Assembly (NCBI GenBank): GCA_963663955.1 | Contig: OY760694.1 | Coordinates: 3,215,251 to 3,279,250, forward strand | DNA from: Acidimicrobiia bacterium | Lineage (GTDB): Bacteria > Actinomycetota > Acidimicrobiia > Spongiisociales > Spongiisociaceae | Direction of reading: 5' to 3' | Length of the DNA: 64,000 nt | Part shown: piece by piece, positions 8,842-44,431 of the stretch | Layout of the letters: the number at the start of each line of letters is the position of its first letter | How positions within the stretch are numbered: the first letter of the stretch is position 1 | Translations under genes and position numbers: made by a program | Notes under the pieces: model-generated | What the model was told of the DNA's origin: nothing | Database searches by the model: none | Seen by the model: only the letters and a program-made list of their open reading frames with translations

Positions 8842-8997
8842 TTGTTCGGTTCTTTTATTCTGCTTTGACCGAACAATTTCATCCCGGAACATGTCCTGGG
8901 AGTCCGATCCCATCAACTCATGTCGATCCAGTCGGAACTCCCCCTGTCGACCAGCAAAATTGTTCGGTATCATTATTAGTGCCATGAACGAACAATT
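8842..8997. promoter_or_regulatory. two perfect 9-bp inverted repeats sharing a TTGTTCG/CGAACAA core, upstream of and overlapping the Fic start
   Basis: The first is TTGTTCGGT-N17-ACCGAACAA (8842-8876). The second is AATTGTTCG-N22-CGAACAATT (8958-8997) and spans the ATG at 8984. Both sit in locally AT-rich sequence. Confidence 0.3.
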
Positions 8998-10000
8998 ATC
9001 TACACCACGGCGCGGCAGGCCTTCGCACCTCCAGATCTATGAGCGGCTGGCGGTTCAGGTACGAGAACTCCACGATCGAATGGGCGGACTGCCCACTCCT
9101 CTCGAGGCGGCCGGAATCTGGAAACGTATCTGGCATGGAGAGGTTCATCATTCCACCGCGATCGAAGGTAACACCCTGGTTCAACGCGAGGTGGAACGCC
9201 TGCTCGAAGAGGGACGCGCCGAAGGTAATCGACCGCTGAGCGAGTATCTGGAGGTCAAAGGGTACGCCGACGCCGCCGATTGGGTGTACCGGCAGGTAGC
9301 GCCTCTGAGGGAATCGTCCGCACCCGATCCTATCCTGACACTCGCCGATGTGAGGATGATCCATCACAAGGCAATGACACCGGTCTGGAACGTGAACCCA
9401 CATCCGGCTGCGAGTGACTCCGAAACGCCCGGTGCCTACCGAAAGCACGAAATCCGTCCTTTCCCCGGTGGAATGACCCCCGTGCCATGGCCCCTCATCC
9501 CCGCGGAGATGACGGCCTGGATCGATCAGGCCAACTCCCTCCAGCCGGATGATCCGACGTTTCCTGAACAGTTAGCGGTCCTGCACTGCCGGTTCGAGCA
9601 GATCCACCCGTTCCTGGACGGCAACGGCAGGTCCGGGCGATTGGTCCTCAACCTGATCCTTGTCCGGCTGGGCTTTCCACCGGCCATTATCTACAAACGG
9701 GATAGGGACCGTTACCTCCGCGCGCTCCGGCGGGCCGATGCGGGGGAACCGGGAACCTTGGCGGTGCTAATTGCCCGAGCGATCCTCGATACCATGTACC
9801 AGCATGTGATACCCGCCGTCGCCGGGCCCGCGCGTCTAGTCCCACTGGCGGCGCTCGCCACCTCCGACCTCAAGGCTCCTGCGCTGAGAACCGCCGCCGC
9901 TCGCGGTCGGTTACAGGCCACTCGCGGACCCGACGGTCAGTGGCGCAGCTCACGGCGCTGGGTCGAGGATTACAAGGCGAGTCGCTGGATCCGGAACTGA
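8984..10000 (+). CDS. Fic family protein (AMPylase-type Fido domain)
   Basis: The canonical Fic motif HPFLDGNGRSGR is present. The track ORF starts at 8891, but the ATG at 8984 (MNEQLSTPRRGRPS...) is the more plausible start. Confidence 0.85.
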   Translation: MNEQLSTPRRGRPSHLQIYERLAVQVRELHDRMGGLPTPLEAAGIWKRIWHGEVHHSTAIEGNTLVQREVERLLEEGRAEGNRPLSEYLEVKGYADAADWVYRQVAPLRESSAPDPILTLADVRMIHHKAMTPVWNVNPHPAASDSETPGAYRKHEIRPFPGGMTPVPWPLIPAEMTAWIDQANSLQPDDPTFPEQLAVLHCRFEQIHPFLDGNGRSGRLVLNLILVRLGFPPAIIYKRDRDRYLRALRRADAGEPGTLAVLIARAILDTMYQHVIPAVAGPARLVPLAALATSDLKAPALRTAAARGRLQATRGPDGQWRSSRRWVEDYKASRWIRN

Positions 10001-12898: not shown

Positions 12899-13831
12899 AT
12901 GGTCGAACTGAAAGAGCCTGCTCGATCCCGCTATGTCCGCTCCGGCGGCGCCTCGACGCTTCGATCAGTAGTCGTAGGGGCTGCTGTCTGGTTGCTCGTA
13001 GCCGCTTGTAGCGGGAATGGTGACTCGACAAGCACCGGGCTTTCGGTAACACCTGCCCCGGGCACCTCCGGCGCTCCGGTAGCAGACGATACGACCACGG
13101 TGGTCACTACCACCACGCCCATCACTACTCGAACGACCGCCTCGACAACCTCAACCCCTACGGCAACCAGCGTAATCTCACCGTCGGATGACGAACCCTC
13201 CCCGGTCTCGACAACGACGCCGCCCCCGAGTGCTTCAACCACCGAAGTGGTAGAGCCACCTGCAACCACCACAGTCGAGATACCTACTCCGGACACCATG
13301 CCCGCCGACGCCACGGTTACCTCTGCGGTGGAGAATCCCTCCTCAACCATGCCTCCTCCATCTACAACAACCTCCGTCTCGGTGGTCGAAGAACCGCCGA
13401 CCGTCGCCTTCACCCCGGCAGATGACCTGCTCGACTACGACATGATCGACGTTCACACGGGCGCCACCGTCAACTTACGTTCGGTAGCCACGGGTGAGAA
13501 ACCGCTGCTGTTCTGGTTCTGGTCCCCGTTGTGAGAGACGTGCCGGACCGAAGGCCCGGCCTTCGAGCAGTTCGCTCGGAACAACGCCCATCGGCTCAAC
13601 GTCGTAGGAGTAGGTGGCTTGGGCACCTTCGAGGACGCTCAGAACTACATTACCCACACCGGGGTGACCTTCGCCTTGCTGTGGACCGACACCTGGGACG
13701 TGTGGGACCACTACGGCATGCAGAGTACGTCCGACTTCATCCTCCTCGACCCGTCCGGCAATCGAGTCACCAACGGCGCTCAACCTTATGACGAGGCCCG
13801 CATAGAGGCCCTGGTGGAGGGCTTGTTCTGA
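12899..13831 (+). CDS. TlpA/ResA-like thioredoxin-fold lipoprotein, candidate selenoprotein (in-frame UGA at 13532-13534 in a U-E-T-C motif)
   Basis: Track ORFs 12899-13534 and 13619-13831 are in the same frame, and the whole span 12899-13831 is open apart from a single TGA. There is a lipobox (LLVAAC) and a Thr/Pro-rich linker. The domain then reads ...PLLFWFWSPL-U-ETCRTEGPAFEQFAR...DFILLDPSGNRV. Confidence 0.65.
13542..13560 (+). promoter_or_regulatory. hairpin 7 nt downstream of the UGA (candidate bacterial SECIS)
   Basis: GCCGGACC-GAA-GGCCCGGC forms 8 bp with one A.C mismatch and a 3-nt loop. Confidence 0.4.
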
Positions 13832-13942: not shown

Positions 13943-15049
13943 ATGACCGCATCCGATCCAGCAGGTTTAGCAGTACGACCCAAGCGTCTCCGCTCGCGTA
14001 CCTGGTCGGCGGTGCTGGTAATACTCGCACTGCTGTTTTCCATCATCGTGCCAATCCCTGCCGCAACCGCCGCCGAATTCTCCGATGTGGCCGGTAACAG
14101 CCACGAGACAGCCATCACCGCGCTCGCCGACTCGGGCGTGCTTGACGGCACCGAATGCGGAACGGGACGGTTCTGCCCGGACGATCCCATCGAACGGTGG
14201 GTAATGGCTGTGTGGTTGGTTCGCGTCCTCGGCGGTGACGTAACCTCGGGCGGTACTTCTCGATTCGCCGATGTCGACTCTTCCGCTTGGTGGTCGCCCT
14301 TCACCGAGCAACTCGCCATCCGCAACATTACAGCCGGGTGTAGAACCGGCCCTCTGCGCTACTGCCCCCAGGATGCGGTAACGAGAGGCCAGATGGCGAC
14401 CTTCTTGGTCCGGGCGTTCGATCTAGCCCCAGCCGCCCCGGCCGGATTCGTCGACACCGGCGGCAATACCCATGAGACGAACATCAACGCTCTGGCCGCA
14501 GCCGGCATTACCGCGGGGTGCAGGACGAGTCCGCTCAGCTACTGCCCTCAGAATGCGGTGACGAGAGGCCAGATGGCCTCCTTCCTGCACAGGGCCTCGC
14601 TCAAACAACAGGCCACCGCCGCAGAGATCAGCGACGACGTTCCCAACATCGAGTTGACCGATCTGGCAAGCGGCGCAACCGTCAATCTACGCTCCCTGAT
14701 CTCAGGTGACACCGCAATCCTTCTTTGGTTCTGGGCCGAATGGTGACCTGTCTGCCGGGGGCACGCCCCCGAAGTCGAGCAGTTCGCTCGGCAGAACGCA
14801 GATCGGCTAACCGTAATCGGGATCAACCCGGCTAGCTTGAACAATCAGGCAAGAGGGACGAGCTTCGTAAGCCGCTACAACTTGACGTTTGCAAACCTGT
14901 GGGACGGTTCCAACCGGGTATATCAACATTACGGCCGACCCTACAACTCCAACTTCTGGCTACTGGACCAGAACGGCAACCGGGTGGGCGACCGAGCGGT
15001 TAGCTTCTCCGTGCGTAGCGCACAAGAGAAACTCGACAGCTTGGAATAA
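13943..15049 (+). CDS. SLH-repeat protein fused to a TlpA-like thioredoxin domain, candidate selenoprotein (in-frame UGA at 14744-14746 in a U-P-V-C motif)
   Basis: Track ORFs 13943-14746 and 14837-15049 share a frame, and a single TGA separates ...AILLWFWAEW from PVCRGHAPEVEQFARQNADRLTVIGIN...FWLLDQNGNRV. The N-terminus has a signal peptide and three SLH-like repeats. Confidence 0.65.
14756..14771 (+). promoter_or_regulatory. hairpin 9 nt downstream of the UGA (candidate bacterial SECIS)
   Basis: CGGGGG-CACG-CCCCCG forms a 6-bp G/C stem with a 4-nt loop. Confidence 0.35.
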
Positions 15050-15466
15050 TAGGGTGCCGCAGCCCTACGGCCCTTATCCCGAGCGAACTTGCCTTCGGCG
15101 GTAAGCGCCGACGCCGACCACCACACCCACGTAGGCCAACCAAGGTATATCCGTCACGCCGGTTGAGCCCTGAGGGTTTCGTCAACCAACACCTCTAGGT
15201 CAACACTGGCTGTTGCAACAGTCTTGTCATCCCAACCGGTTAGGTCCTTCACTTCCTGGGGGGCTGATTCCCGGGCGCACCCTAATCAGAGCGTAGAGCA
15301 GGTACGCGCGCTTACCCCGGTCACTGCCATTCTCAGGTCGGTCGGAACTCATGCGCGATCTGCTGCTCTATGTGCCAAAAACCCCACCCAGACAGTTCGC
15401 TTTCAACACCGGAATCGGCATCCTCATCTTCATGCCTTTCCTATCCCTTTGTAGTAATAAGTCTAA

Positions 15467-16425
15467 GAGCGTCCGCGGGTAGGGGTTAGTTGAGGTTGTA
15501 GCGGTCTCGCCATTTGATGAGTTTGATGGTGATGATGAGGGTGATGGCTAGGTTGAGTTGGGCGTGTCGGTGGTGGGTGTTTCGGTCGGTGTTGCGGCGG
15601 AGTTGCCCGTAGTTGGTGAGCCATGAGTTGGTTCGTTCGACGGTCCAGCGCATACCGAGGGGTGCGGGTGTTTTGGTGTTGCCGGTTTGGCCTCGTGGTT
15701 TTTTCTTGGCGCATATGACGTCGGTTATGCCGGCGGCGTCGCAGAGGGCGCGCACGGTTTTGCTGTCGTAGCCTCGGTCTAGGTGGAGGGTTTCTATGTC
15801 GGGGAGCAATCCCCGCCGGTTGATCGCTTCGAGGGTGGGTTGGAATAGGATGCTGTCGTGGCGGTTGGCCCCGTTTGTGGCCCAACCGATCGGTATGCCG
15901 TTGCGGTCTGTGGCCAGGGACCATTTCGGGCCGGATTCGGCCCGGTCGCAGGGGTTTTTCCCGGTTCCTTCCCCCCCGGAGGGCGCTTTGTGTTGGCTAC
16001 CGTCGACCGAGACCTCGGATAGGTCCAACCCGATCACACGGTCGTAGGCGGCTACGGCTTCTGCTTCGAGGTTCTCGAAGACGCCTGCTTTCATCCATTC
16101 ATCGCGTCGGGCCCGCAGAGTCGTGTCCGACACCTCTTTGTTCAAGAGTTGTTCGGCTGTTTCCCACAAGCAGCCGGTCACCAACCGGATCAGTATCCCC
16201 TGGAAGCAGACACGGTCCGGTTTACGGGGATTGTGACAGCCCAGGGGATGGTTGTCCTCCCGGGCGGGCAACAGACCCTTTGTGGCTTTCCACACCGCGT
16301 TTGCTACTTCGGGGTCGAGTGCGCGCATAATGATACCTCCACCAGTTGGGGGATTTGTGTTGCACTCGGTATGAAACCCGAGACAACCCCTCAACTGGTG
16401 GATTTCCACCTACCCGCGGACGCTC
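15467..16425 (-). mobile_element. IS5-family insertion sequence, copy 1 (959 bp)
   Basis: It has 17-bp terminal inverted repeats GAGCGTCCGCGGGTAGG / CCTACCCGCGGACGCTC. It is flanked on both sides by TAA (a 3-bp duplication within CTAAG) and encloses one transposase ORF. Confidence 0.8.
15486..16409 (-). CDS. IS5-family DDE transposase (DUF4096-type N-terminus)
   Basis: Contains GILIRLVTGCLWE, HLDRGYDS and RWTVERTNSWL..YGQLRR. A probable internal ATG start gives MRALDPEV. It differs at 4 residues from the copy at 37745-38668. Confidence 0.85.
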   Translation of the reverse strand: MEIHQLRGCLGFHTECNTNPPTGGGIIMRALDPEVANAVWKATKGLLPAREDNHPLGCHNPRKPDRVCFQGILIRLVTGCLWETAEQLLNKEVSDTTLRARRDEWMKAGVFENLEAEAVAAYDRVIGLDLSEVSVDGSQHKAPSGGEGTGKNPCDRAESGPKWSLATDRNGIPIGWATNGANRHDSILFQPTLEAINRRGLLPDIETLHLDRGYDSKTVRALCDAAGITDVICAKKKPRGQTGNTKTPAPLGMRWTVERTNSWLTNYGQLRRNTDRNTHHRHAQLNLAITLIITIKLIKWRDRYNLN

Positions 16426-16888
16426 TAAGTGATCCTGCACGCCTCGGCTCGACATCGGATGTCCTCCGGCAGAAACAGATCGGTCAGATTAGCCATCGCA
16501 AGCGTTACCGGCCGAGGTCGTTCGGCACTGCCTGAGCGGTTGGAGGTTCACCCGGATTCACGGAGCCCTGCTTACGCAAACAGTTTGCGTATTTCTACAG
16601 CTTTGCGCAATCCGCTCAAAGTTTGCAATCTGCGCAAAGGCAAGGCGCATACACGCACGGGACTGCAATGTCTGCCCAAGCTGAAGCTCACAAGACCGGG
16701 CCGTTATCGGGACGAGGCACACCTAACGACTCGTAGAGGGAACTCGGATAATCCGGAGACGTCATGAGACGGTTGCCCGGTTTGGATGCACGCCGAGGTT
16801 ACTCCCCCCACGAAGATCCGTCGGGCAGTTGTGCTGCATCCTGCCTAAGCTACGGTTCATGGCCTTCCCGTCTGGAATACGGTGAGGA

Positions 16889-18688
16889 GTGTTAACCGTG
16901 GTAGAAGCCCCCCGCCTGAGTGCCGGTGTTCGTATAGAGGCCGTCTGGATCAGCGGTTTTCGCGTGTTGCGAGACGTATGTGTGACCCTTGATCCGGAAA
17001 CCACAGTTCTTGTTGGTGAGAACAACACCGGCAAGTCCGCCTTTCTGGAGGCGCTGGAGACTGCTCTGGGAACGCGATCCCCCGTACCAGACGACCTCCA
17101 CGTCGACGGGGCTGGTCAGCAGAGCCGCGAGTTCCTTGTAGACCTTCTCTTGGTGCCTGCGAGAGGAACCCGGTTCTCTCAGCATCTAGAAGCACTGTTC
17201 GGGGATGCAGTCCGCTCTGAGACCCCACAAGGCTCTGTCGGCGAAGGAGCGCGCAACTTCGTGGCGATACGTACCATCGGTACGATTGGCGTCGATCACA
17301 GCACCGTCGACCGTCGTCGCTGTTTCGTTGAAGGTTGGCCCGGTTGTGGCTCACCCACCGGGACCGGAGTTATGGAGGTGCCGGCACCGCGGGTGACTGA
17401 GCGCCACCTAACCGTACTCTCGTTCGCTCTCTTGCATGCAAATCGTGATCTCGTCGCCGACATGCGACGACAAACAAGCCGGTGGGGTCGACTGCTGGCT
17501 CAGCGCGACCTGGATCAGGACATAGAGAAGTCCGTCGAGGGCCAATTGCGGGAGTTGGGTGAACTTCTTCTCGGGAACAGTTCTCTGCTTGGTCGCCTTC
17601 GGGACCGCCTCGACGAGGCCCGGAAGGCTATGCCGACCGTCGACGAGGTAGAACTTGAACCTCTACCAAGCAGGGTCGCCGACCTCACAAGGGCGACGGA
17701 TATTGTTGTGAGCGCCCCTGCAGGAGCCCGTTTGCCGCTACGGATGCAGGGCCTGGGGAGCCGGAGCCTCGCCGAAGTGCTGGTCTATCGAGCGTTTGTC
17801 GGCGAAATCCCGGGAATGGAAGAGCCCTTCTCACCACACATTGTGGCTGCCTTAGAAGAACCCGAGGCCCACCTACATCCACATGCCCAGCTCGCCCTTA
17901 TGCGCATTATCGATCAAATACCCGGTCAGCGGATCGTCACCACGCACTCAGGCCAGATCGCAGGAACCACACCGATCCGACAAGTTCGAGTCTTCCGGCA
18001 CTCAGATCAAGGCATCGAGGTCAGACGCTCCGGGCACCTTGACGATGCGGACCAGATCAAGACGCACCGTCTCATCGCCCGTTCCTACGGCCAAGTACTT
18101 TTCGCTCGCCTGGCGATCATCGGAGATGGGACAACTGAGCACGACGCCTTACCTGTGTTCGCCCGTGCTCACTGGGGAGCGGAAGCCGAAAGTTTGGGCG
18201 TAACCTTTGTCGATCCGGGGTCCCTCGCCGCGGCGAAGGGGCTTGTCAAAGTGCTTGAAGGCCTTTCCATACCGTGGCTAGCGCTCGTTGACGCCGACCA
18301 GGGGGGCGATAACGCACTACGAGCTATAGGCAACTTGCTTGAACGAACCCTTAATAGGGAGTCGGAAGAAGTCGTGATGCTCCCGGACCGCACAGACTTC
18401 GAACGATATCTGATCGACGAAGGCCTTCAAGCGCCTATCAGGGATGGAATCCGCGCATTCTACGGACCCTACGCACTGGCCAGATTCTCGAAACAGACCA
18501 ATTATCGTGGACGGGGCGAGGATGATGTCCTTGAGGGGTTTCTCGACAAGAACAAGGGAACTTACGGGGCTGCCGTTGCCGAAGCGGTCGTCGCGCTCGA
18601 GGATGAGAACGGTAATCCGACGATTCCGGGGCGGGTCGCGGAGTTATTCAAGCGGGCTGACCATATACTCGGAATGCGTTCGCGATGA
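16889..18688 (+). CDS. gajA: OLD-family ATPase/TOPRIM nuclease (GajA-like)
   Basis: The N-terminal ABC-like ATPase reads VWISGFRVLRDVCVTLDPETTVLVGENNTGKSAFLEAL, with Walker B AALEEPEAHLHP and TTHS. The C-terminal TOPRIM signature is LAIIGDGTTEHD ... LVDADQGGD. It is followed directly by a UvrD-like helicase. The GTG at 16898 has the better SD spacing. Confidence 0.7.
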   Translation: MLTVVEAPRLSAGVRIEAVWISGFRVLRDVCVTLDPETTVLVGENNTGKSAFLEALETALGTRSPVPDDLHVDGAGQQSREFLVDLLLVPARGTRFSQHLEALFGDAVRSETPQGSVGEGARNFVAIRTIGTIGVDHSTVDRRRCFVEGWPGCGSPTGTGVMEVPAPRVTERHLTVLSFALLHANRDLVADMRRQTSRWGRLLAQRDLDQDIEKSVEGQLRELGELLLGNSSLLGRLRDRLDEARKAMPTVDEVELEPLPSRVADLTRATDIVVSAPAGARLPLRMQGLGSRSLAEVLVYRAFVGEIPGMEEPFSPHIVAALEEPEAHLHPHAQLALMRIIDQIPGQRIVTTHSGQIAGTTPIRQVRVFRHSDQGIEVRRSGHLDDADQIKTHRLIARSYGQVLFARLAIIGDGTTEHDALPVFARAHWGAEAESLGVTFVDPGSLAAAKGLVKVLEGLSIPWLALVDADQGGDNALRAIGNLLERTLNRESEEVVMLPDRTDFERYLIDEGLQAPIRDGIRAFYGPYALARFSKQTNYRGRGEDDVLEGFLDKNKGTYGAAVAEAVVALEDENGNPTIPGRVAELFKRADHILGMRSR

Positions 18689-20619
18689 GCGTCACCACTC
18701 TTACCGAACAGCAGATCGCGGCTATTGAACTGGGCGACGGAGCGCACTTGATCACCGCTCCTCCCGGCTCTGGCAAGACCGAGGTGCTGGTACGACGGGT
18801 GATAAGCCTCTTGGACGGATCGCCGCGTGATCTTTTCCGGATACTTGCCCTGACCTACACGGTAAGGGCCGCTCAAGAACTGGAGAAGCGTGCTCGGATG
18901 GTGGTTCCCGAAGACGACCTCTGGCGGGTCAACGCGACAACCTTCCACTCCTTCGCCCTTGGCATTCTGGAGAACTACGGAGGTCCGGTAGGTCTGAAGA
19001 GGCCCATAACCGTCATCTCGGACCTGGAAGACAAGCGCGCTCTCGTCATCCAAACTCTTGAGGAACGGTTCGAGCTGATCGGATCGATAGATCGTTCTGA
19101 ATGGCGGAAACTGTTCAATAGGATCGCCCTGATGAAAACCAGTCTCACCCACCCGACACCGGGCGGACGAGATCGGGTACTAAACGGCAGGATCCGGCTG
19201 TCCGAAGCCTACGAAGCTTACGAAACTGCGCTGACGAATACCGGAAGTGTTGACTATGAAGGGATGATCCGCCAAACGGTCAAGCTGATGGAGATACATC
19301 CATGGGTGGCCTCACACATCCGCCGACAGTACCGGCACATACTGGTCGATGAGGGCCAGGAGCTAACCGGAGGCCAGTACGAACTCTTAAAGATGATACG
19401 GAATGATAACCATCAGAGGTTCTTTGTCGTCGCCGACACCGACCAGTCCATCAACGCCTTCGCGGGGGGTGGTCCTACCTTCTTACGAGAGTTTGTCTCG
19501 GACTTCAATGCCGACGAACACAAGCTCACAACTAACTTCCGGAGCGCCCGGGCCATCGTCGACGCCTTGGGGGGGTTGCGCAAGAATATCGGGGAACGCG
19601 GTGCGCCGACAACGCTCGATAGTGGAACTCTTGCTAGGGGGTGGGTCGGGGCACGCTCCTATGTCAACGACGAGCACGAAGCAGAATCTACCGGTAAGTG
19701 GATCCGCTCCGTCCTGCAGACGGGGCTTGATCCGGAATGGGTGTACAAGGGAGAGGCCACCGCGGTAACACCCGAGGACATCTGCGTTCTCGGGCGAACC
19801 CGCTATGCGTTTGCCAACCTCTTGGATGATCTCCAAGAACACGAGGTTGCCTTCTCTCTGCGCGTCGAGGAAAAGGCCCTCTTCGAGTCATCTCCGGGCC
19901 GCCTAAGCCTCTACGCCCTCAAGCTGGCACAGAACCCGAGAGACCTACCGGCGCAGCGTCGCCTACTGGAAGAGTTGGGAGAACAATACAAAGAGGGCGA
20001 TGACGGTCATGAAGTCCTGTCGACTGAAGCCATCCTCCGAGACTCCGCAAAGCGAGGAAGCCTCCCCCAAGAGTTCATCGAAGCCCTCCTGGGCTCGGAC
20101 ACTGCGACCCCGAACGGCCTCCAAGCGGTTTCGGCATTGATAAGAATGGACGAGATCGGCATCGACCTAGACGATACCGAAAGAGAAGCGTGGTATCGCG
20201 ATCAAGAGCACCTTCAGCGACTGCTCACCGACTATCAAACAACCACCGCGGCGCCTTATCGATCTCTCGCCGGGTTCCTCCGCATGTTATCTCGGCTTGA
20301 GGGCGTCCCACCGTCCGAACCCGGCGTGAGGGTCCTGACACCGCACCGCGCCAGAGGGCTCGGCTTCAAGGTGGTGATTCTTCTAGGAATGAACGACGGC
20401 AACTTCCCTCACTACAAAGCCACATCCCCCGAAGAACTGGCCGAGGAACGTAGAGTGGTCTACGTCGCAGCAAGCCGAGCAGCCAGGGCATTGCTCCTCA
20501 CCCGACCACGTACTCGGCTGTCGAGATATGGCAACTGGTATCGATGCCGGGAGTCACGTTTCATCCGTGAGATGGGGCTGACGATGGAGGAAGTCGCCCC
20601 GGACGCCGACGCCTCCTAG
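18685..20619 (+). CDS. gajB: UvrD/PcrA/Rep-type superfamily-1 helicase (GajB-like)
   Basis: Contains LTEQQIAAIELGDGAHLITAPPGSGKTEVLVRR (motifs Q/I), ILVDEGQE, TNFRS and VLTPHRARGLGF. Its start overlaps the gajA stop (ATGA). Confidence 0.75.
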   Translation: MSVTTLTEQQIAAIELGDGAHLITAPPGSGKTEVLVRRVISLLDGSPRDLFRILALTYTVRAAQELEKRARMVVPEDDLWRVNATTFHSFALGILENYGGPVGLKRPITVISDLEDKRALVIQTLEERFELIGSIDRSEWRKLFNRIALMKTSLTHPTPGGRDRVLNGRIRLSEAYEAYETALTNTGSVDYEGMIRQTVKLMEIHPWVASHIRRQYRHILVDEGQELTGGQYELLKMIRNDNHQRFFVVADTDQSINAFAGGGPTFLREFVSDFNADEHKLTTNFRSARAIVDALGGLRKNIGERGAPTTLDSGTLARGWVGARSYVNDEHEAESTGKWIRSVLQTGLDPEWVYKGEATAVTPEDICVLGRTRYAFANLLDDLQEHEVAFSLRVEEKALFESSPGRLSLYALKLAQNPRDLPAQRRLLEELGEQYKEGDDGHEVLSTEAILRDSAKRGSLPQEFIEALLGSDTATPNGLQAVSALIRMDEIGIDLDDTEREAWYRDQEHLQRLLTDYQTTTAAPYRSLAGFLRMLSRLEGVPPSEPGVRVLTPHRARGLGFKVVILLGMNDGNFPHYKATSPEELAEERRVVYVAASRAARALLLTRPRTRLSRYGNWYRCRESRFIREMGLTMEEVAPDADAS

Positions 20620-20985: not shown

Positions 20986-22413
20986 CTATCTACCTATAGC
21001 CTGGAGCAATTCTTCGGTTTCGCGGGCGAGACGTTCCGCAACTGCTACATGCTCTATTTCGGGTATACCCCACTCCGGATCGATCGACTCCGCCACTATA
21101 CGTATACCACCAGCCGCTTCGGTGTCCTCGAATCTGTATACGCCCAGGTCGTCCGGACTTATAGGGGAACCTCCCGATGCATGCTCGGCCCCCTGCGACC
21201 TGAGCATGCAATTGGAAACCTGATGTAGAAACTCAGAGCTATGAGTGGTACACAGAACCCTCACGCCTGCCCCGGCCAGGGCCACCAATGACTCGGCAAC
21301 AGCCAGGATCGCCTCGGGATGCATATGAGCCTCAGGCTCGTCAATCAGCAGCAAATCGCCTGGGCGCAAGATGTGCTTAACCCAACCGAGCAGCGGCACT
21401 ACCTCCGCCACCATCGAAGAAGCCCGCTGCACCGGAATCTCTTTACCATCCTGTGCATAGGTAAAGGAAGGAACCTTATCCCTCCCCCTTCCGAACTTGA
21501 TCTCACCGGCGATCAACCCATCCAAACGCTCGACAGCCGCAAACATCATCATGTCGGACTGGAGCGGTCGTCGAGGCTGTATGAGTGGAAGCAACTCGGA
21601 CAGGAAATCCAAGGCTATGCCTCCCAAGGCGGCAGGTTCCCGACCCTTGAGAGCGAGACGGTCACGCTCCCGTTCGAGCCTGAGACGCACCACATCCGTC
21701 CACGCCTCCAGTAACCCGGATCGCCCGGCCGGTAAGTAATAAGCCGATCCACCTAAGCCGGCCGACGGCAGGAAACCCTCAGCCCACACAAACCGGGCAA
21801 GCTGAAGAGATATCCGCCGTCTCGCATATCCAGCAAGGTCACCCTCTCGGGACCTTTCCCAATACCTTCGGGCACCCCTCAGGACGGGACCGCGCGTCGG
21901 TCGACCGGGTTGGTAAGCCATGGCCGGGAAGAAGTCCGCTACTTCAGCAGAAGGGCCTCCACCCAAACCGAACAGGAACCGATCCTCTCCGGCGATCCTG
22001 CAGGAAACCGCAACATCAAGATCGGAGTCGGCAGCCCACCTTTGTATCTCATCCAACCCCTTGACATCAAAATAGATCTTCAGTCGATCCTCTAGATGTT
22101 CGTCCGCTTGACCCATAAGGTCGCCCAACCACCGCTCGGCTTTCCCCCTCACGGACGACCCGAACACAGCCCAACCATCGTCAGCTACGGATCGACGATC
22201 GGCGGCAATCACCTGTTCGACTTCCTCGTCGGACAAAAGCGGCTCCGGCACGCCATTCACCTGATCCACAGCCTTGAACACCGAATACACCGCCTGAGCA
22301 GCGTACGTCTTCCCCGTATTGTTCTTACCGATCAGCACCGTGAGAGGATGAAGCTGGATCTCACCCTCTCGAATCGGGCCAAGATTCCGCAAACGGATCA
22401 TTGGATAAGCCAC
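20986..22413 (-). CDS. stand-alone ABC/SMC-like ATPase (AAA_15/21-like)
   Basis: Contains MIRLRNLGPIREGEIQLHPLTVLIGKNNTGKT (Walker A), YLPAGRSG (Q-loop-like), LLLIDEPEAHMHPEA (Walker B) and CTTHSSEF. Confidence 0.65.
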   Translation of the reverse strand: MAYPMIRLRNLGPIREGEIQLHPLTVLIGKNNTGKTYAAQAVYSVFKAVDQVNGVPEPLLSDEEVEQVIAADRRSVADDGWAVFGSSVRGKAERWLGDLMGQADEHLEDRLKIYFDVKGLDEIQRWAADSDLDVAVSCRIAGEDRFLFGLGGGPSAEVADFFPAMAYQPGRPTRGPVLRGARRYWERSREGDLAGYARRRISLQLARFVWAEGFLPSAGLGGSAYYLPAGRSGLLEAWTDVVRLRLERERDRLALKGREPAALGGIALDFLSELLPLIQPRRPLQSDMMMFAAVERLDGLIAGEIKFGRGRDKVPSFTYAQDGKEIPVQRASSMVAEVVPLLGWVKHILRPGDLLLIDEPEAHMHPEAILAVAESLVALAGAGVRVLCTTHSSEFLHQVSNCMLRSQGAEHASGGSPISPDDLGVYRFEDTEAAGGIRIVAESIDPEWGIPEIEHVAVAERLARETEELLQAIGR

Positions 22414-22767: not shown

Positions 22768-24873
22768 TCAGGCCGCTTCGAAGTCCCGTGTGTTCGACAG
22801 GTCGAACGTGTTGGCGTGTGAGGGTTCGGGCGAGTACTCGGTGTAGCTGATCCGGGTATACGCTCCGGAATACAGTGCCTCTTCGAATGCTTCAAGACGT
22901 ACTGGCGCACCTCTCACTGTCAACCGATCGTTGTCATCGTATTGCACCAGCTTGGGGCTACGCGCGTCGTGGAGGATCAGATTCCTCGTCACGTCCTGTA
23001 CCAGGATGGGCACACCCAGAACAGATCGTCCTTCAGCCTGGGGCTTAGCCCAGTAGTGCGCCATGGGCTGGGCCGTAACCTCACCTGCCGTTTGGGCTGC
23101 GATGGTCTCTGTGTCAGGTTCGGCTCCGGTCCATATGTACCGGAGCGACGCCACACCCCGCTGGTCGGTGTTTCTAACGGTTGGGACGGTTCCGACTCCG
23201 TGGCCGTCATCAGATGTGAATGCGATGCTTTCCCCAACCACCGGGGCGCCGTACTGGTCGGTGAGGACCCCTGTCACCACGTTCACGGGACCCGGCCCGG
23301 ATCCGGTGAGTTCGTGGTAACGCATTACCTGCCTGAGCCGGAGGGTGGTAGCCCTAGGCGCTTGCTCGGACCATGTAACCGGGGCGTCTAGCGTCGAGCC
23401 ATCTCCGCCCGCCACTCCAAGGGTGCTCCGGTCGATCACAGTAAGACCCTGGACCGACACGTCGATGTCCATCGTGGTCTCATCACCACCCGTAGACGGG
23501 TCCGGATCGGACGCTTGGTAGGAAACAGTAACCCTGCCCCCGACATCTGTCCGGTAGGTTTTGACACTGGTCAGGTCTCTCACCCCGTTCCTTACATACG
23601 TGGTGGAGACTTGTACCCGGTGTCCCGCTTCGCCAACCGCTCGACCGTCTTCGTCGACCAACTGGAATACGAACCCGATTGGCACACCAAACATGAGTGC
23701 CTGGGCGGTGGACCGCATATCGTCGGCGACCAGGACCGACGAGGCTGGTTTCAGCACCTGGACGTCGGCCATAGCAGCTGTAGTAGTAGCCAACCGGAAG
23801 CGGCTCCCCTGAGAACCCGTCCAGGCCCACAACCTTATGTTGTCGACTGGTTGAAGGACCACCCGAACGTTACCGGACTCATCAAGCTGCTGATCGGACC
23901 CATCAATCGTGCACACCCGTGCTCCGACCGTGGCCTGCACTCCCTCCCGGCAGGCGCCATCTGCGCCGAACAACTCGTAGGGATCGTCGGCCGAGGTGGA
24001 AAACATGTCTATTCGCATCCCGGTCCGGGGCTGGAACCTGGCGTCACGAACGGAAACCTGCACCTCGAGCGTGTCGCCGGCGGAGATAACCGAGGAGGCG
24101 CTCTGGATCGATATGCCTTCCGGGCGTGAGTTCGTATGGGCTAAGGCCCGGGTCACGAATAGGGCCATCTGGCCCCTCGTTAGGAGGGTTCGGGGCGAGA
24201 AGGTCGTGGCAGTAACCCCCACCGTGATGCCCATCTCGTACATCACCCTCACCGCGGTGACCACCAGCTCGGACTGGTCGCCCAGATCCTGAAACACGTC
24301 ATCGTCCGGCGTGACCACAGATACGTCCGTCCCGCCGGGACCGGTAGGGGCCAAATTGAGGAAGCGGTACAGGAAAAGGGCCATCTGGCGGCGATCCATC
24401 GGGCTATCCGGGTGGAAGGTAGTAGGCGAGGTACCCCGAGTAATCCCCATGGTCGCCAGTTGATTGATGGCGACTTGGATGTGAGGAGCATGGTGGGCGA
24501 TATCCTGGAACCCTTGATCGATTGCCACAGGCACAGCGATTCCGGCCGGCCCGGAGGCCCGCACCAAGAACATCGCCATCTGCCAGCGAGTTATCGGATC
24601 GTCGGGTGCGTATCGGTTGGCCGTTTTTCCTACCGAAATGCCGTAGTAGGCAAGACAATTGATGCCCTGTTCGGCGAAATGGCCGGCTACATCCAGGAAT
24701 CCGGCTGAAGCATTAGCGGCTCCCGTACACGCCGAGTAGACAGCAAGATGGTCCGGTTGGCCGTCAACAGCTCGGACCGGTGACGGAGCCGCCACCACCG
24801 ACGCAGCGACCAAAGCGGCAAGCAAGACCACTGCCGTACGTTTTGAGGCCCATGTGCTCATACACTCTGTCAC
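22768..24873 (-). CDS. large secreted surface protein: signal peptide + 3 SLH-like repeats + Ig-like/beta-rich C-terminal region (paralogue 1)
   Basis: It has a signal peptide. The SLH block begins YSAC...AGFLDVAGHF..INCLAYYGI...ITRWQMAMFLVRA, with two further SLH repeats. It also has the HTNSRPEG motif shared with the other four paralogues. Confidence 0.7.
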   Translation of the reverse strand: MTECMSTWASKRTAVVLLAALVAASVVAAPSPVRAVDGQPDHLAVYSACTGAANASAGFLDVAGHFAEQGINCLAYYGISVGKTANRYAPDDPITRWQMAMFLVRASGPAGIAVPVAIDQGFQDIAHHAPHIQVAINQLATMGITRGTSPTTFHPDSPMDRRQMALFLYRFLNLAPTGPGGTDVSVVTPDDDVFQDLGDQSELVVTAVRVMYEMGITVGVTATTFSPRTLLTRGQMALFVTRALAHTNSRPEGISIQSASSVISAGDTLEVQVSVRDARFQPRTGMRIDMFSTSADDPYELFGADGACREGVQATVGARVCTIDGSDQQLDESGNVRVVLQPVDNIRLWAWTGSQGSRFRLATTTAAMADVQVLKPASSVLVADDMRSTAQALMFGVPIGFVFQLVDEDGRAVGEAGHRVQVSTTYVRNGVRDLTSVKTYRTDVGGRVTVSYQASDPDPSTGGDETTMDIDVSVQGLTVIDRSTLGVAGGDGSTLDAPVTWSEQAPRATTLRLRQVMRYHELTGSGPGPVNVVTGVLTDQYGAPVVGESIAFTSDDGHGVGTVPTVRNTDQRGVASLRYIWTGAEPDTETIAAQTAGEVTAQPMAHYWAKPQAEGRSVLGVPILVQDVTRNLILHDARSPKLVQYDDNDRLTVRGAPVRLEAFEEALYSGAYTRISYTEYSPEPSHANTFDLSNTRDFEAA

Positions 24874-25104: not shown

Positions 25105-27177
25105 TCAGCGGTTCGTCAGTATGTAGCCGTTGACTATCCCGGAGCCGGCACCCATAATCCGGTATTCGAGGGTATCGCGGACAGTCAGGTCATCTTCGAA
25201 ATCCGAGTAGCTGACGGCCTTCTTGTTGATGGTGAACTGATCATTCGAATCGTACTCCACGAGGAGGATGTCGTTAGTGGCCACGATAATCGCGGTGTCC
25301 TCATCGGTGTCCACCACTCGAACGGTGCCCGAACCGTTTGCCGGGCCTTGTATGCGGGTGACCCAGAACTGGCGCGTAGTGGACGTAATCCGATCGAACG
25401 AACCGGTTACCCGCTCGGCGAAGCTTTCGTTCGAGTCCCTTTGGTAGTTGAGGGCGGCCACCCCGCTCGCATTGGTAGTACGTCGGATCCCGTTCGGAAC
25501 CCCTCTGCTGTCATTGGACGAGAAGACCACTTGCTCGCCTCTTACCGGCCCCCCATATTGGTCACTGAGGAGGGCTGTGACCGTGGCAGCTGCACCGCTT
25601 CCCGCGGATGAGGCCACTACGTATTCCTGCAATGCTGAAAGGGTCAGCGTGGTGGGCTCAGGTCGTTCATCGGACCATTGCAAGGTCGGATCGTCGCGGG
25701 TTCCGTCATCATCCACAATCCCGACCGCCGTCTCGTCGGTAACGCCGAGACCGCCTCCCGGCATCACATCAAGATCCAGAAACGCCACGTCACCCCGCTC
25801 CTCCGATGGGTCGATGTTGAGGAAGGTTGCCTGCGCGGACCCGTCGATTCCGGTCTGCTTGGTCAGGGTGGTCGTCTCGATCCTCTTTCCCCCGTCCCGT
25901 GACTCCTGAACTTCCACCACGAATGACGCCCCCTGCCAGGGAACCGGGTTCCCGTCGTCGTCGACCACCTGGAAGGTGAAGGTCACCGCTCTACCGAAAG
26001 GCACCCGCACCGCACTGTCCGGTAGGTCGTCGGTCACCAGCAGGGCGGCAGGTGTACTGCGAGTGGCTACGTCTACCGCCACGAAACGGGTGCGGTTCAG
26101 GTCGAACACAGCACTGAGATTTCCTGTCCACACCCAGATTCTTACAATCGCCGACTCACCGACTTCAACATCGGCAGTCAAGTTCCCGGAGATGTCGGTG
26201 GTTGGATCCCGACGATCAATGACACATTCGGTGGCACCCGCCGCGGGTATCGCCTCGGATGTGCACCGGCCCTCTTTGTCAAACGCCTTGTCCTGTGTCT
26301 CGGTGGTGAACAGGTCCACCCCCTGATTTGCAAAGGCTCCGTGGGTGCCGTCGCGGAGGGTTATCGAGATCTCAGCGCTTGACCCCTTGAACACCTTCTC
26401 GTCGGTGGTCTGAACAGACAAACCGGCGGGACGGGCGTTGGTGTGGGCCAGCATACGGGTTATGAATACCGCCATCTGGCCCCGGGTAACCCAGGCGTCC
26501 GGGGAGAACGCATTGGCGGTGGTCCCTTGGGTGACACCCAACTCGTAGAGCCGCCGTATGGCCCGGTTGGTAACGAAGGGCACTTGGTCTAGGTCCTTGA
26601 AGTTGCTGTCATCAGGCCGGACATCACGTATGGCTGTGCCTCCAGGCCCGATAGGAGCCGCCTCCAAGAACCGGGACAACAACATGGCCATCGACTGGCG
26701 TGTAACCGGTTCGGCAGGTCCATAGGTTTTATCTGCCAAACCCGGCATGATCCCCAATTGAGCCATCTGGTTGATTCCGGCCTGGATGTGAGTAGCGTAG
26801 GTGCCTAGGTCGGTAAACCCCTGGGCGGTGGGCTTGGGCAGCACGAGCCCGGCCGGATGGGTTGCTCGCTGTAGGAACAAGGCCATCTGCCAGCGGGGGA
26901 TTATGTCGCGAGGAGAAAACCTCCCGGCCCCCGTACCGAAAGTAATTCCGTAGTGAGCAAGGCAGTTAGCAGCTTCCTCGGCGAAGTTACCGGCCATGTC
27001 AACAAACCCGGCAGGGGTTACGGCGGCGTCGACACAGGCAGAATACCGGGCTGGATGATCCACCACCCCGTCCACCCCTGCCGCGGGAGGTAGGTGCCCG
27101 AATAGCAGAGATCCCACCAGCAACAGGGCGAGCGTCGGCAACGCCCAACGTTTGTGCGGTGCTGCCGCTTCGAACAT
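25105..27177 (-). CDS. SLH + Ig-like surface protein (paralogue 2)
   Basis: Same architecture: YSACVDAAVTPAGFVDMAGNFAEEAANCLAHYGI..., HTNARPAG, a C-terminal HYW/FWV motif and Y-D-x-N-D-x-F. Confidence 0.7.
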   Translation of the reverse strand: MFEAAAPHKRWALPTLALLLVGSLLFGHLPPAAGVDGVVDHPARYSACVDAAVTPAGFVDMAGNFAEEAANCLAHYGITFGTGAGRFSPRDIIPRWQMALFLQRATHPAGLVLPKPTAQGFTDLGTYATHIQAGINQMAQLGIMPGLADKTYGPAEPVTRQSMAMLLSRFLEAAPIGPGGTAIRDVRPDDSNFKDLDQVPFVTNRAIRRLYELGVTQGTTANAFSPDAWVTRGQMAVFITRMLAHTNARPAGLSVQTTDEKVFKGSSAEISITLRDGTHGAFANQGVDLFTTETQDKAFDKEGRCTSEAIPAAGATECVIDRRDPTTDISGNLTADVEVGESAIVRIWVWTGNLSAVFDLNRTRFVAVDVATRSTPAALLVTDDLPDSAVRVPFGRAVTFTFQVVDDDGNPVPWQGASFVVEVQESRDGGKRIETTTLTKQTGIDGSAQATFLNIDPSEERGDVAFLDLDVMPGGGLGVTDETAVGIVDDDGTRDDPTLQWSDERPEPTTLTLSALQEYVVASSAGSGAAATVTALLSDQYGGPVRGEQVVFSSNDSRGVPNGIRRTTNASGVAALNYQRDSNESFAERVTGSFDRITSTTRQFWVTRIQGPANGSGTVRVVDTDEDTAIIVATNDILLVEYDSNDQFTINKKAVSYSDFEDDLTVRDTLEYRIMGAGSGIVNGYILTNR

Positions 27178-27736: not shown

Positions 27737-28819
27737 ATGAGAATCAAACGCTTCGAGATTAGTGCCTTTAGGACATTCGACCATCTCACGTTGGGCGGGT
27801 TACGTCGAGTTAACCTCATCGCAGGACAGAACAACGTTGGAAAGACGGCCCTGCTCGAAGCGTTGTGGCAGTTCTCGGGGCCCAATCAACCTGATATCGG
27901 TCTACGGCTTGATCAGTTCCGAGGAATCCATTGGATCGAGGAAGATTACCTGTTTGCCAATTTGTTTCATGGTCGTGATACATCCAAGCCTATAGAACTG
28001 AGAGCCCATGGAGATGCGTCCGTGACTCCGCGTGTTCTAAGGATCGAAACAAGGACTCGAACAACGTCTCGGACTCCCTTAAACGGAAACGGTGCCTCCG
28101 AGGCAATCATGCCAACCCTCGTAGATAGGCCGCATGAGTTAGTCCTTACGTACGAGGATGGATCGGCAGAATATGAATCCCGCGGATGGTTCGAACCCAG
28201 CCGTACACCTGCCGGGGTCCAGAACTCCTTTGAGACACAGAGACATCAGATTCCAGGTGGGCTGGTCGCCGCGTATTTCAGTCCGAGCCACCGCAATCCC
28301 TCGCAGGAAGATGCTGATCGGCTTGGGCGCCTTCAAGTAAGGGACGCCGATGCAATGGTCGTTGACGCCCTCAGGCCCTTCGAACCACAACTGCAACGGC
28401 TGGTGACCGTATCTGTCAGTGGAATACCCGTAATCCACGCGGATCTGGGACAGAACCGTCTCATTCCGATGGGTCTCCTGGGCGACGGTATGCAACGCTT
28501 GCTTTCCCTGACTCTCGCCTTTGACGTCGCGTCAGGGGGAATGATTCTGGTCGACGAGATCGAGAACGGGATCCACCACTCCAAACTAGACTACTTGTGG
28601 CGAGCCATATCGGTCTTTTCAATGAGGTTCGACGTTCAGGTATTCGCCACCACCCACAGCGCCGAATGTGTAAGTGCCGCGCATGAAGCTTTTGAGCATG
28701 AAGACCACTACGACTTTCGTCTCATCCGCCTGGATCGGCTCAACGGGGCAACCGTGGCCAAGTCATTCGACCGGTCTACTCTGGGCACCGCCATAGAGGC
28801 GGACTTCGAGGTGCGCTAG
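27737..28819 (+). CDS. ABC-like ATPase of a two-gene ATPase/TOPRIM module (copy a)
   Basis: Contains MRIKRFEISAFRTFDHLTLGGLRRVNLIAGQNNVGKTALLEAL (Walker A), ILVDEIENGIHHS (Walker B) and FATTHSAEC. GGAGG lies 7 nt upstream of the ATG. Confidence 0.75.
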   Translation: MRIKRFEISAFRTFDHLTLGGLRRVNLIAGQNNVGKTALLEALWQFSGPNQPDIGLRLDQFRGIHWIEEDYLFANLFHGRDTSKPIELRAHGDASVTPRVLRIETRTRTTSRTPLNGNGASEAIMPTLVDRPHELVLTYEDGSAEYESRGWFEPSRTPAGVQNSFETQRHQIPGGLVAAYFSPSHRNPSQEDADRLGRLQVRDADAMVVDALRPFEPQLQRLVTVSVSGIPVIHADLGQNRLIPMGLLGDGMQRLLSLTLAFDVASGGMILVDEIENGIHHSKLDYLWRAISVFSMRFDVQVFATTHSAECVSAAHEAFEHEDHYDFRLIRLDRLNGATVAKSFDRSTLGTAIEADFEVR

Positions 28820-29436
28820 TGGTCCGAACTAAACCGGTCAGCATCAAGGAGGCCGGCCTCGTATTGGTTGAGGGCAAGGATGACCAGAAGTTTCTCCACC
28901 GCCTGAGTGATCACATGGAACTCAGGGGACTCCAGATTCTCAGCTATGGAGGGAAGGACACACTTCGAGATTACCTAAGGACCATACGCCGGCTGCCCGG
29001 GTACGAAAGCGTGCAACATCTCGCAATCGTTCGCGACGCGGACGATAATGCTGAGAACGCCTTCCGCAGTGTCCGCAGCGCGCTGATCGACGCGGAATTA
29101 CCGGACCCGCCAAGACCGGATGAAATGGCATCGTTGCCAAAAGTTGGGCTAAAAGTCTCGGTGATGATCATCCCCCCTGGCTTTCAACGGGGCTGTTTGG
29201 AAACCTTGCTTTGGCAGATTATCAAGACCGCCTCATCCGCGAATTGTATAAGCGAGTATATTGATTGTGCTGAGATCCCTGCCAGAGGAACCCGGCGCGA
29301 TAGAGCGATGGTCCACGCTTACATAGCCGCCCAGCACAAGCCGGGCCTCAAGATCGGTGAGGCCTCCCAGGCTGGCTACTTTGACTTGGACCATGCTGCA
29401 CTCCGCCCTGTCAAGACCTTCTTAGCAGAGTGGTAG
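28819..29436 (+). CDS. small TOPRIM-like protein (copy a)
   Basis: The GTG start shares one nucleotide with the ATPase TAG stop (TAGTG). It has the conserved Glu motif LVLVEGKDD and the acidic D-x-D cluster AIVRDADDN, matching the TOPRIM pattern. Confidence 0.6.
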   Translation: MVRTKPVSIKEAGLVLVEGKDDQKFLHRLSDHMELRGLQILSYGGKDTLRDYLRTIRRLPGYESVQHLAIVRDADDNAENAFRSVRSALIDAELPDPPRPDEMASLPKVGLKVSVMIIPPGFQRGCLETLLWQIIKTASSANCISEYIDCAEIPARGTRRDRAMVHAYIAAQHKPGLKIGEASQAGYFDLDHAALRPVKTFLAEW

Positions 29437-37432: not shown

Positions 37433-37728
37433 ATAATCCGCCGTAGCAGGTTCCCGAACTGCAACAGGTGATCCGGAAAGATATCACCAATGCCTGAAGG
37501 GGGTGGTACGCGTCCCATCCTTGCCGAATCCAAGATCGAGTGTTGCCAGGCCCACAAAACTGAAGCGTTCCGCCCAACCGTACCCATCGGAGTCATGCCA
37601 CAGATCCGACTTGTAAGTGCAATGTTCGAGTCAGCAGGCTTGTCGAGTCCGCCGTTGTCCCTGGTCAGGAGCTTACCCGTGGCTGCGCTTCGCTTCGACA
37701 GGCCTCACTCATGAGGAATCGGGGCTAA

Positions 37729-38687: not shown

Positions 38688-38789
38688 TAAGTGAACCTAA
38701 ACTCGACGAATAATTACGCAAAGACGCAAAGATACGAATAGACAAATAAATACGCAACAAACTTCTCCGGCTGGCGGTATGGTGCTTCT

Positions 38790-39899: not shown

Positions 39900-40615
39900 G
39901 TCAGCTCCCTTCTTGGAATTACCCTAGTGAAACTATCAGCAGGGTGGGACACCCGCTTCGCCACGAAGGAAAGGGTGCAGAACTTTCTCGTCTGCCGAGC
40001 GTCTCTCAGCCGGTGTCGTATTCGTTGGTAGAGCGGGTGGTCAGGATTATCGACCTTTCTGGTAGCGGCGGGAGCCCAACTTAGAAGAGGCCTCCGCAGC
40101 TCCCGTCCTTAGGCCAGGAGAATCAGTGTCCTGAAGCATGTGACACACCGAGCTAGGAAGGTCCCTGATGGGCGAGCGCCACCAAGCTACGCTTCCTCGG
40201 GTTCCAGATCAACAAGGCAAAGGTGATGCGACCAGAGAAAATGTAGATGAGGGGGGCTATCACCGTCACACCCGAACGTCCAACCCGAGGAGAATTACTA
40301 CGTCTACTTCTCGGGGTTACCACCGATCAAATCTTCAGCACCCTCCCCAACTACCGCGAAATCACGGATCAGAAGACACTCGAGGCAGGGAACCCAGAAC
40401 CCCGTCCTTCGCTCTATAGTACAAGGACGAGGATGGGAGCGACCGATCTGGTTAGTGAGTCACGGGACGCCAGAAGCTCTGCCAAGACGCCGCGAACACA
40501 TCCGACGCAGAACCACCACCTCGCACACTGAGCGAACGACGGAATAGGACCACTCAAGCCTCATGAGTTGAAGACGTACCCAAACGGCTTCGCTCAGCGC
40601 AACGGAGGTTGCCTG

Positions 40616-44282: not shown

Positions 44283-44431
44283 TCAGCCGCGCCTGACGGG
44301 AGGGAGAGACCGGGAAGTATCTGCCAGCCTGGACAGGTCTATCCCCAACCGGGTGCATCCGGCACGCTCTACAGTTGCGGTCCTGACCCGGGTGTTAAGA
44401 AATCGATACAGTGCCATGGGAGGGCTCAGGG

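Follow-up and report, generated by a model that had tools for sequence, protein, structure and literature searches.

Within a 64,000-nucleotide stretch of DNA from an Acidimicrobiia bacterium of the Spongiisociaceae (GenBank assembly GCA_963663955.1, contig OY760694.1, positions 3,215,251 to 3,279,250 of the forward strand), referred to here as the window and numbered from its first letter, two adjacent genes, gene A and gene B, carry an in-frame TGA at the codon for the first residue of a thioredoxin-type active site. Judged from sequence comparison, both very probably encode exported, DsbE/DsbF-like selenoproteins of the UxxC type, in which selenocysteine (Sec, U) would be the first active-site residue. 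Since UxxC thioredoxin-fold selenoproteins have long been predicted in marine bacteria, the family to which the two genes belong falls into a type that is already known, and it is as a family that it forms a new, unannotated addition. An initial annotation, made from the letters of the window alone, had proposed gene A as a candidate selenoprotein gene, and this proposal is supported by the conservation of the TGA, the coding character of the frame downstream of it, the alignment of Sec with Cys in related proteins, a structure in the RNA resembling a selenocysteine insertion sequence (SECIS) and the presence of an export signal.

Two tandem genes with an in-frame TGA

The open reading frame (ORF) of gene A at 12899-13534 closes at ...PLLFWFWSPL-TGA, and the frame then resumes as ETCRTEGPAFEQFARNN... 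until the TGA at 13829-13831, in agreement with the initial description of a frame that stays open to 13831. When U is written as C, the 310-residue product matches the AhpC-TSA profile (PF00578) at 30.6 bits (cutoff 26), and the Thioredoxin_8 and Redoxin profiles are matched as well. Directly downstream lies gene B, absent from the initial annotation, which has the same layout with TGA in the place of Cys: here, past ...AILLWFWAEW-TGA (14744-14746), the frame runs on as PVCRGHAPEVEQFARQN... up to a TAA. The redoxin match of gene B is the stronger of the two (AhpC-TSA PF00578, 50.5 bits against the cutoff of 26; Redoxin PF08534, 41.1 bits). The redoxin domains of the two products share 37% amino-acid identity, with the TGA at the first CxxC position in both, and a scan of the window for TGAs flanked by long open frames found a redox motif at these two sites only. 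The features of the two coding sequences are the following:

12899..13831, forward strand: gene A, full read-through coding sequence of a UxxC redoxin of lipoprotein type, DsbE/DsbF-like; 310 codons including predicted Sec211, terminator TGA at 13829-13831
12899..13009, forward strand: gene A lipoprotein signal peptide with lipobox L-V-A-A-C, read from the sequence; Cys37 at 13007-13009
13010..13393, forward strand: gene A low-complexity Thr/Pro/Ser-rich linker joining the lipid anchor to the redoxin domain, with equivalent linkers in homologues P0006-P0014
13532..13534, forward strand: gene A predicted Sec codon, in-frame TGA, in the context WFWSPL-U-ETC
13943..15049, forward strand: gene B, full read-through coding sequence of the paralogue of gene A anchored by S-layer homology (SLH) repeats; 368 codons including predicted Sec268, terminator TAA at 15047-15049
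13943..14071, forward strand: gene B N-terminal signal peptide (basic n-region, hydrophobic core, ATA-A site), with a putative cleavage site
14072..14416, forward strand: gene B SLH cell-wall anchor repeats, from profile matches
14744..14746, forward strand: gene B predicted Sec codon, in-frame TGA, in the context WFWAEW-U-PVC

A family conserved across the Acidimicrobiia

When one genome per bacterial and archaeal species was scanned, 79 loci were obtained, nearly all of them in metagenome-assembled genomes (MAGs) of Acidimicrobiia, many sponge-derived (Ca. Poriferisocius, Spongiisociaceae, Aldehydirespirator) and many being complete chromosomes. The carrier organisms are uncultured. With the two window sites included, the family amounts to 124 sites and 112 unique sequences, from which 111 genes were aligned. 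Of the two search patterns, one included the peptide E-Q-F-A-R; however, the same features recur in the second gene copies of the flanks, which neither pattern had picked out.

TGA stands at the catalytic codon in 124 of 124 sites, usually in two tandem paralogues per genome, and is followed in every case by x-x-C-R-x-E-A-P-x-x-E-Q-F-A-R. The active site of the family can be written W-F-W-x-P-x-U-x-x-C, with the second Cys kept at all 124 sites, these having been chosen on the U-x-x-C motif. In the 111 aligned genes, a further 94-218 codons (median 98) can be read beyond the TGA before the gene ends at TGA (72 genes), TAG (25) or TAA (14). Substitutions in this downstream frame are most frequent at the third codon position, less so at the first and least at the second, i.e. 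the pattern of coding sequence. Loss of in-frame conservation after the TGA among homologues had been named at the outset as an outcome that would speak against a selenoprotein; on inspection, the region is both conserved and coding.

A profile search of protein databases returned 15 relatives, all of them fragments: ten end at ...LLFWFW(S/A/V)P(L/W/F/H) and five start just past the site, from which it follows that gene callers split the family at the TGA, just as the initial annotation had anticipated for gene A. Among the database entries and loci examined (L001-L079, P0001-P0015), the family is annotated only as TGA-cut fragments or truncated hypothetical proteins, and none of the NCBIfam models passes its cutoff for it. 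The carrier genomes include RefSeq records (NZ_OZ... Ca. Poriferisocius).

The order YjeF-gene A-gene B recurs in three further loci (L001, L002 and L006); over the redoxin domain, L002 and the window are 79% identical. The same called ORFs (267 + 70 codons) are found beside an identical YjeF gene on a 5-kb contig that was assembled from another sequencing run (ERR3887494). A scan of about 1.5 Mb of locus flanks for further recurrent in-frame TGAs in a redox context gave artefacts only. One locus, L067 (JBDHFS010000404.1, 2 kb), is the sole member on a contig labelled neither Actinomycetota nor unclassified bacterium; it was binned as Gemmatimonadota and is probably a mis-binned fragment of Acidimicrobiia.

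Protein identity, active site and location

The closest solved structures are Mycobacterium tuberculosis DsbF (3IOS, E = 1.5e-12, 34/99 identical) and DsbE/MPT53 (1LU4, E = 2.4e-07), followed by thioredoxins and ResA. Both mycobacterial proteins are secreted and of actinobacterial origin. The initial assignment of gene A to the TlpA/ResA type is thus to be divided: the thioredoxin fold is confirmed by the Pfam and PDB matches, whereas the nearest characterised kin are the actinobacterial DsbE/DsbF (MPT53) and not rhizobial TlpA. In the alignment, the DsbF segment KPAVLWFWAPWCPTCQGEAP lies opposite KPLLFWFWSPL-U-ETCRTEGP of gene A, which places U on the first, nucleophilic Cys; U likewise falls on the first Cys of CPFC in DsbE, the corresponding DsbF motif being WFWAPWCPTC. 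The expectation that U would stand opposite the first Cys of CxxC therefore holds in Cys-containing homologues. Furthermore, a Cys-containing paralogue (L077:1563) that adjoins a Sec form reads WFWAPWCVTC.

At the column of the DsbF cis-Pro (QQPAY), the family alignment, which is a sequence alignment only, has Pro in 51, Ser in 44 and His in 15 cases. Both window proteins have Ser at this position (gene A, STSDF, 13727-13741; gene B, YNSNF, 14951-14965). If this does represent loss of the cis-Pro, it would be unusual for a thioredoxin-fold oxidoreductase.

With regard to location, the lipobox (LLVAAC) and the Thr/Pro-rich linker noted earlier in gene A are indeed present, and the extracytoplasmic location predicted from them is backed by the family as a whole: 87 of the 111 aligned members have a lipobox and a further 21 have another hydrophobic signal without one. 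The enzymes are extracytoplasmic. When neighbouring genes were clustered across the loci, the groups reflected lineage-specific synteny or were artefacts of antisense ORFs, and a conserved partner of the CcdA/DsbD, VKOR or cytochrome-maturation kind was not among them.

Besides gene B, the window encodes six SLH proteins, all on the reverse strand: five large ones at 22768-24873, 25105-27177, 35267-37432, 49261-51366 and 51528-53828, and a small one at 1592-2191. The five large paralogues are surface proteins of about 700 residues, four of them with a weak match to the Ig-like Big_1 domain. Together with gene B, these proteins point to an SLH-based system of cell-wall display in this bacterium.

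RNA hairpins downstream of the UGA

In the predicted folds of both window genes, the UGA is followed by two consecutive hairpins:

13540..13561, forward strand: gene A hairpin 1, loop GAA, 15 nt after the UGA; the structure is conserved, while its register shifts between subfamilies
13562..13580, forward strand: gene A hairpin 2, best candidate for a bacterial SECIS (bSECIS); 7 bp, loop AGUUC at 13569-13573, 34 nt after the UGA, -9.4 kcal/mol, contained in the F-E-Q-F-A-R codons
14756..14771, forward strand: gene B hairpin 1, stem CGGGGG/CCCCCG, loop CACG
14774..14792, forward strand: gene B hairpin 2, best bSECIS candidate; 7 bp, loop AGUUC at 14781-14785, 34 nt after the UGA, -11.6 kcal/mol

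The longest run of DNA identical between gene A and gene B, TCGAGCAGTTCGCTCGG, is the 17-nt core of hairpin 2. Across the 111 genes, the segment from +7 to +50 has a mean folding energy of -22.0 kcal/mol, as opposed to about -11.5 in other parts of these genes; in 68% of them no other segment folds more stably. Hairpin 1 is found at 112 of 112 unique sites, with diverse stem sequences and a variable register.

The initial annotation had described an 8-bp hairpin at 13542-13560 in gene A, at a place where bacterial SECIS elements are located. The hairpin exists and starts 7 nt past the UGA, although on closer reading it consists of seven Watson-Crick pairs around an A-C mismatch, with GAA as its loop. 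As for its role, the structure is conserved, but it conforms to the bSECIS consensus (stem of 4-16 bp, loop of 3-9 nt with G in its first two positions, spacing of 16-37 nt, minimum free energy (MFE) of -7.5 or below; as quoted in PMC13188914) at only 16 of the 112 sites. Hairpin 2 satisfies every one of these criteria at 100 of 112, including both window sites, and hairpin 1 was accordingly rejected as the SECIS in favour of hairpin 2.

Further features of hairpin 2 concern pairing, covariation and codon usage. Its partners are paired in 96.5% of cells, compared with 35-43% when the partners are slid; compensatory changes from C-G to U-A occur in 12 sequences and from A-U to G-C in seven; and the covariation score exceeds that of 500 out of 500 shuffles. 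Synonymous codon choice within the hairpin is likewise skewed, Ala being encoded by GCU in 90% of cases (10% elsewhere in the same genes) and Arg by CGA in 69% (14% elsewhere). The Cys-containing paralogue of L077, for its part, has neither the hairpins nor EQFAR, and its fold is at background level (-10.2 kcal/mol, versus -30.4 for the adjacent Sec form).

In gene B, an additional outer helix (14750-14755 with 14798-14803, GUCUGC/GCAGAU) encloses both hairpins in a three-way structure of -29.8 kcal/mol (z = -3.8). This helix is not predicted for gene A, and its conservation in gene B orthologues is seemingly partial.

Selenocysteine machinery and alternative explanations

Published annotation tables of sponge-symbiont MAGs, some of them assigned to the lineages of carrier genomes, bear on whether the carriers can decode UGA as Sec. 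Slaby et al. 2017 (PMC5649159) found SelA together with SelB in the majority of sponge-symbiont bins, and their COG annotation of bin76, an Acidimicrobiia bin, lists two SelA, one SelB and one SelD. In the available part of the re-annotation by Robbins et al. 2021 (PMC8163846), APA_bin_74, which is 96.6% complete, has one K01042 (selA) and one K01008 (selD). There it is assigned to species GCA_002239105.1, g__Bin134, taken here as the species of bin134, which holds a locus (L042) with two UxxC genes. In the same portion of that source, both K01042 and K01008 are also given for APA_bin_18 (family Bin134), APA_bin_10 and APA_bin_17 (order bin76), thus for four of four Acidimicrobiia sponge MAGs; APA_bin_10 is listed as species GCA_002238785.1, g__bin76, and is taken here as bin76. 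The same source places APA_bin_98, from which L002 and L033 derive and which is the second-closest relative of the window, in order bin76, and its tree places L039, L053 and L055 in genus Bin134, around APA_bin_74. Outside the sponge symbionts, a 2026 preprint describes a complete selA/B/C/D set in 84 of 84 complete Actinomarina genomes, the SelB of which is divergent.

Several results nevertheless weigh against Sec insertion. ARAGORN detected no tRNA-Sec in the 64-kb window or in the 79 loci (about 1.5 Mb of flanks), and tblastn with SelA/B/D probes from E. coli and SelA/B/D/FdnG probes from Tsukamurella found no selA, selB or selD in the window or the same flanks. A search of the whole window against Rfam at gathering thresholds gave no family match, as is expected for bacterial SECIS elements, and the conservation of the hairpins is partly confounded with that of the encoded peptide E-Q-F-A-R. 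In the COG table of PMC5649159, bin134 itself (90% complete) has one SelD but neither SelA nor SelB, and SelD alone proves little, since orphan-SelD Actinobacteria exist, as listed by Peng et al. 2016. The single selA is not airtight either, because K01042 can match paralogues (25 copies in one MAG). Finally, the sources examined show selB and selC for no genome in which UxxC genes were found, the SelB of bin76 being known from the COG table. Separately, two weak matches to E. coli SelB, one in L011 and one in L032, proved to come from BipA/TypA GTPases.

In the main residual alternative, the UGA is recoded to another residue, e.g. Cys or Trp, by a dedicated tRNA with a UCA anticodon or by a SelB-like factor, SelD being kept for another purpose. 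The original annotation of bin134 and the orphan-SelD Actinobacteria fit such a scheme, and the hairpin signals, whilst arguing for selected read-through, do not identify the amino acid that is inserted. Against it, the site is the classic UxxC position of Sec in a fold with many predicted Sec forms; the loop of hairpin 2, with G followed by U and a 34-nt spacing, fits a consensus derived from canonical bacterial SECIS elements; the more complete re-annotated MAG of the bin134 species has selA as well as selD, and bin76 has SelA, SelB and SelD; and the flanks of all loci are devoid of unusual tRNAs. Recoding to a residue other than Sec is consequently regarded as very unlikely.

Explanations in which the UGA is not decoded at all, or is decoded everywhere, fare no better. 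If the TGA were a genuine stop, the product would be a truncated protein made of an anchor and half a domain, and what lies downstream would go untranslated or be produced on its own, in the manner of a split gene or of programmed termination. This is what gene callers report, and Sec decoding is generally inefficient, such that some truncated product is likely anyway. Nevertheless, both parts lie in one frame with no spacer in 111 of 111 aligned genes, and the downstream part evolves as coding sequence while having no conserved start codon or ribosome-binding site. Moreover, the break divides the thioredoxin fold and the U-x-x-C motif mid-domain, so that neither half could fold alone, and termination at this codon is thus highly improbable. 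A pseudogene, or an error of sequencing or assembly turning TGC or TGT into TGA, is what a lone nonsense codon in an intact ORF suggests when one sequence is viewed alone. This view is effectively refuted, and its probability is slight in the extreme: two window paralogues share the TGA, as do 124 sites, at 35-90% amino-acid identity, in about 75 genomes that were assembled independently, with purifying selection and no other disruption, and the ERR3887494 contig agrees. Genome-wide reassignment of TGA to sense (genetic codes 4 or 25), for which nothing speaks beyond the in-frame TGA itself, is refuted and has a negligible probability. The window has 60% GC, most of its long ORFs, including Pfam-supported ones, end at TGA, and only two of its TGAs combine open conserved flanking frames with a redox motif. 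Since TGA is the commonest true terminator of the very same genes (gene A and 72 of the 111 family genes), the codon is not reassigned.

Proposed mechanism and implications

Under the favoured interpretation, that of UxxC selenoproteins, the stem-loop located some 30-48 nt past the UGA (hairpin 2, loop A-G-U-U-C) would act as the bacterial SECIS and recruit the SelB-GTP-Sec-tRNA(Sec) complex, by which the UGA would be decoded as Sec and not as a stop. The variable hairpin 1, situated between the UGA and hairpin 2, is probably a spacer or stabiliser. The product of gene A would be lipid-anchored at Cys37 and that of gene B held in the cell wall through its SLH repeats. At the cell surface, the selenolate/selenenylsulfide couple of U-x-x-C would then perform thiol-disulfide exchange on envelope or secreted proteins, either as an oxidase or as a reductase.

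The hallmarks of the family are the near-universal presence of the Sec codon, the tandem arrangement of a lipoprotein and an SLH-anchored paralogue, and a hairpin 2 that doubles as the E-Q-F-A-R codons. A more far-reaching proposal, to be held only tentatively and on balance doubtful, is that the two-hairpin arrangement constitutes a distinct, lineage-specific class of bSECIS, with a variable hairpin at the ribosome entry side followed by a near-invariant hairpin with a G-U loop, possibly co-evolving with the divergent SelB of marine Acidimicrobiia. It is just as speculative that this class would serve a family in which Cys has given way to Sec almost entirely, namely the exported, surface-anchored disulfide oxidoreductases found in sponge symbionts. 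An extreme form, far less likely still, would have some carrier lineages decode this UGA with no canonical SelA/SelB.

In practical terms, well over 100 genes of marine and sponge-associated Acidimicrobiia are mis-called, those of complete chromosomes included. The family would represent an apparently obligate, Sec-using pair of redox enzymes at the cell surface, in a lineage in which selenium biology came to light only recently, and it offers a concrete candidate reason for the retention of SelA/SelB in sponge symbionts. With its clear covariation, the aligned set of about 110 SECIS variants from nature should be useful for training predictors of bacterial SECIS elements and selenoproteins. 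The understanding of how selenoproteins work is left unchanged by the family.

Genomic surroundings

Upstream of the redoxin pair, a Fic/DOC-family protein (8891-10000, forward strand) is encoded between a luciferase-like monooxygenase and the YjeF NAD(P)HX repair gene. Downstream, two inverted copies of an IS4/IS5-family DDE transposase (15466-16429, reverse strand; 37725-38688, forward strand), 98.8% identical over 964 bp, flank about 21 kb of defence and surface-protein genes, with the first copy directly after gene B. The syntenic locus L001 has no counterpart of this copy, which therefore seems to have been inserted recently.

At 16889-20619 (forward strand), an OLD-family AAA_15 + TOPRIM nuclease gene is followed, with a 4-nt overlap, by that of a UvrD-type helicase, resembling a Gabija-like GajA/GajB pair. 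Two pairs of genes for an AAA_21/AAA_15 ATPase and a DUF3226 (TOPRIM-like) protein lie at 27737-29436 (forward) and 43653-45829 (reverse), and three further stand-alone AAA_15/AAA_21 ATPases at 20986-22413 (reverse), 40568-41698 (forward) and 47527-48465 (forward); together these form a dense cluster of candidate anti-phage systems. Towards the window end, a C-5 cytosine DNA methylase (59577-60632, forward) is followed by a weak match to the C-terminal part of Shedu SduA (61247-62740, forward); this pair may be a further defence module.

Comparison with known systems

When compared with the canonical bacterial SECIS/SelB system (E. coli fdhF and fdnG, and the consensus model), the present elements share the intracoding stem-loop right after the UGA, and hairpin 2 in particular has a canonical geometry, with G-U at positions 2-3 of a 5-nt loop, a 7-bp stem, a 34-nt spacing and an MFE below -7.5 kcal/mol. 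They differ in the extra, register-shifting hairpin between the UGA and the consensus-like hairpin, and they bear no sequence resemblance to the E. coli elements.

At the protein level, DsbF (Rv1677) and DsbE (Rv2878c) of M. tuberculosis have in common with the window proteins the context W-F-W-x-P-W-C-P-x-C-x-x-E-A-P, the actinobacterial origin and the secreted location, identity to DsbF being 34%. Where the mycobacterial proteins rely on Cys, those of the window show UGA/Sec; they also carry long Thr/Pro linkers or SLH repeats, and their residue at the cis-Pro position is Ser. The family modelled by NF041054, a ResA-like WAxxUGC selenoprotein (cutoff 300 bits), is likewise an exported redoxin of TlpA/ResA type and a recognised selenoprotein. 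However, its motif and family are unlike those of genes A and B, neither of which is a member: the score of gene B is 19.5 bits, and the model does not match gene A at all.

The broadest resemblance is to the UxxC thioredoxin-fold selenoproteins (Prx-like, Trx-like, redoxin and TlpA-type) whose prediction in marine bacteria dates back to 2005-2008 and which a 2026 review (PMC13188914) catalogues. Entries of this kind include the ‘Prx-like thiol:disulfide oxidoreductase’ (PF00578), the GOS ‘Prx-like 1’ and ‘Prx-like 3’, and the ‘Redoxin family protein’ (PF08534), all of them UxxC. Like the present family, such Prx-like and Trx-like proteins are of marine origin, have a thioredoxin fold that matches PF00578/PF08534 weakly to moderately, carry Sec where the first Cys of CxxC would be and are encoded with a stem-loop right after the UGA. 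They are, in contrast, broad bins defined by Pfam domain plus motif, which possibly already include the DsbE/DsbF-like lineage of Acidimicrobiia, whereas the present family is more narrowly defined by the signature WFW-x-P-x-U-x-x-C-R-x-E-A-P-x-x-E-Q-F-A-R, a lipobox or SLH anchor, tandem paralogues and the two-hairpin element.

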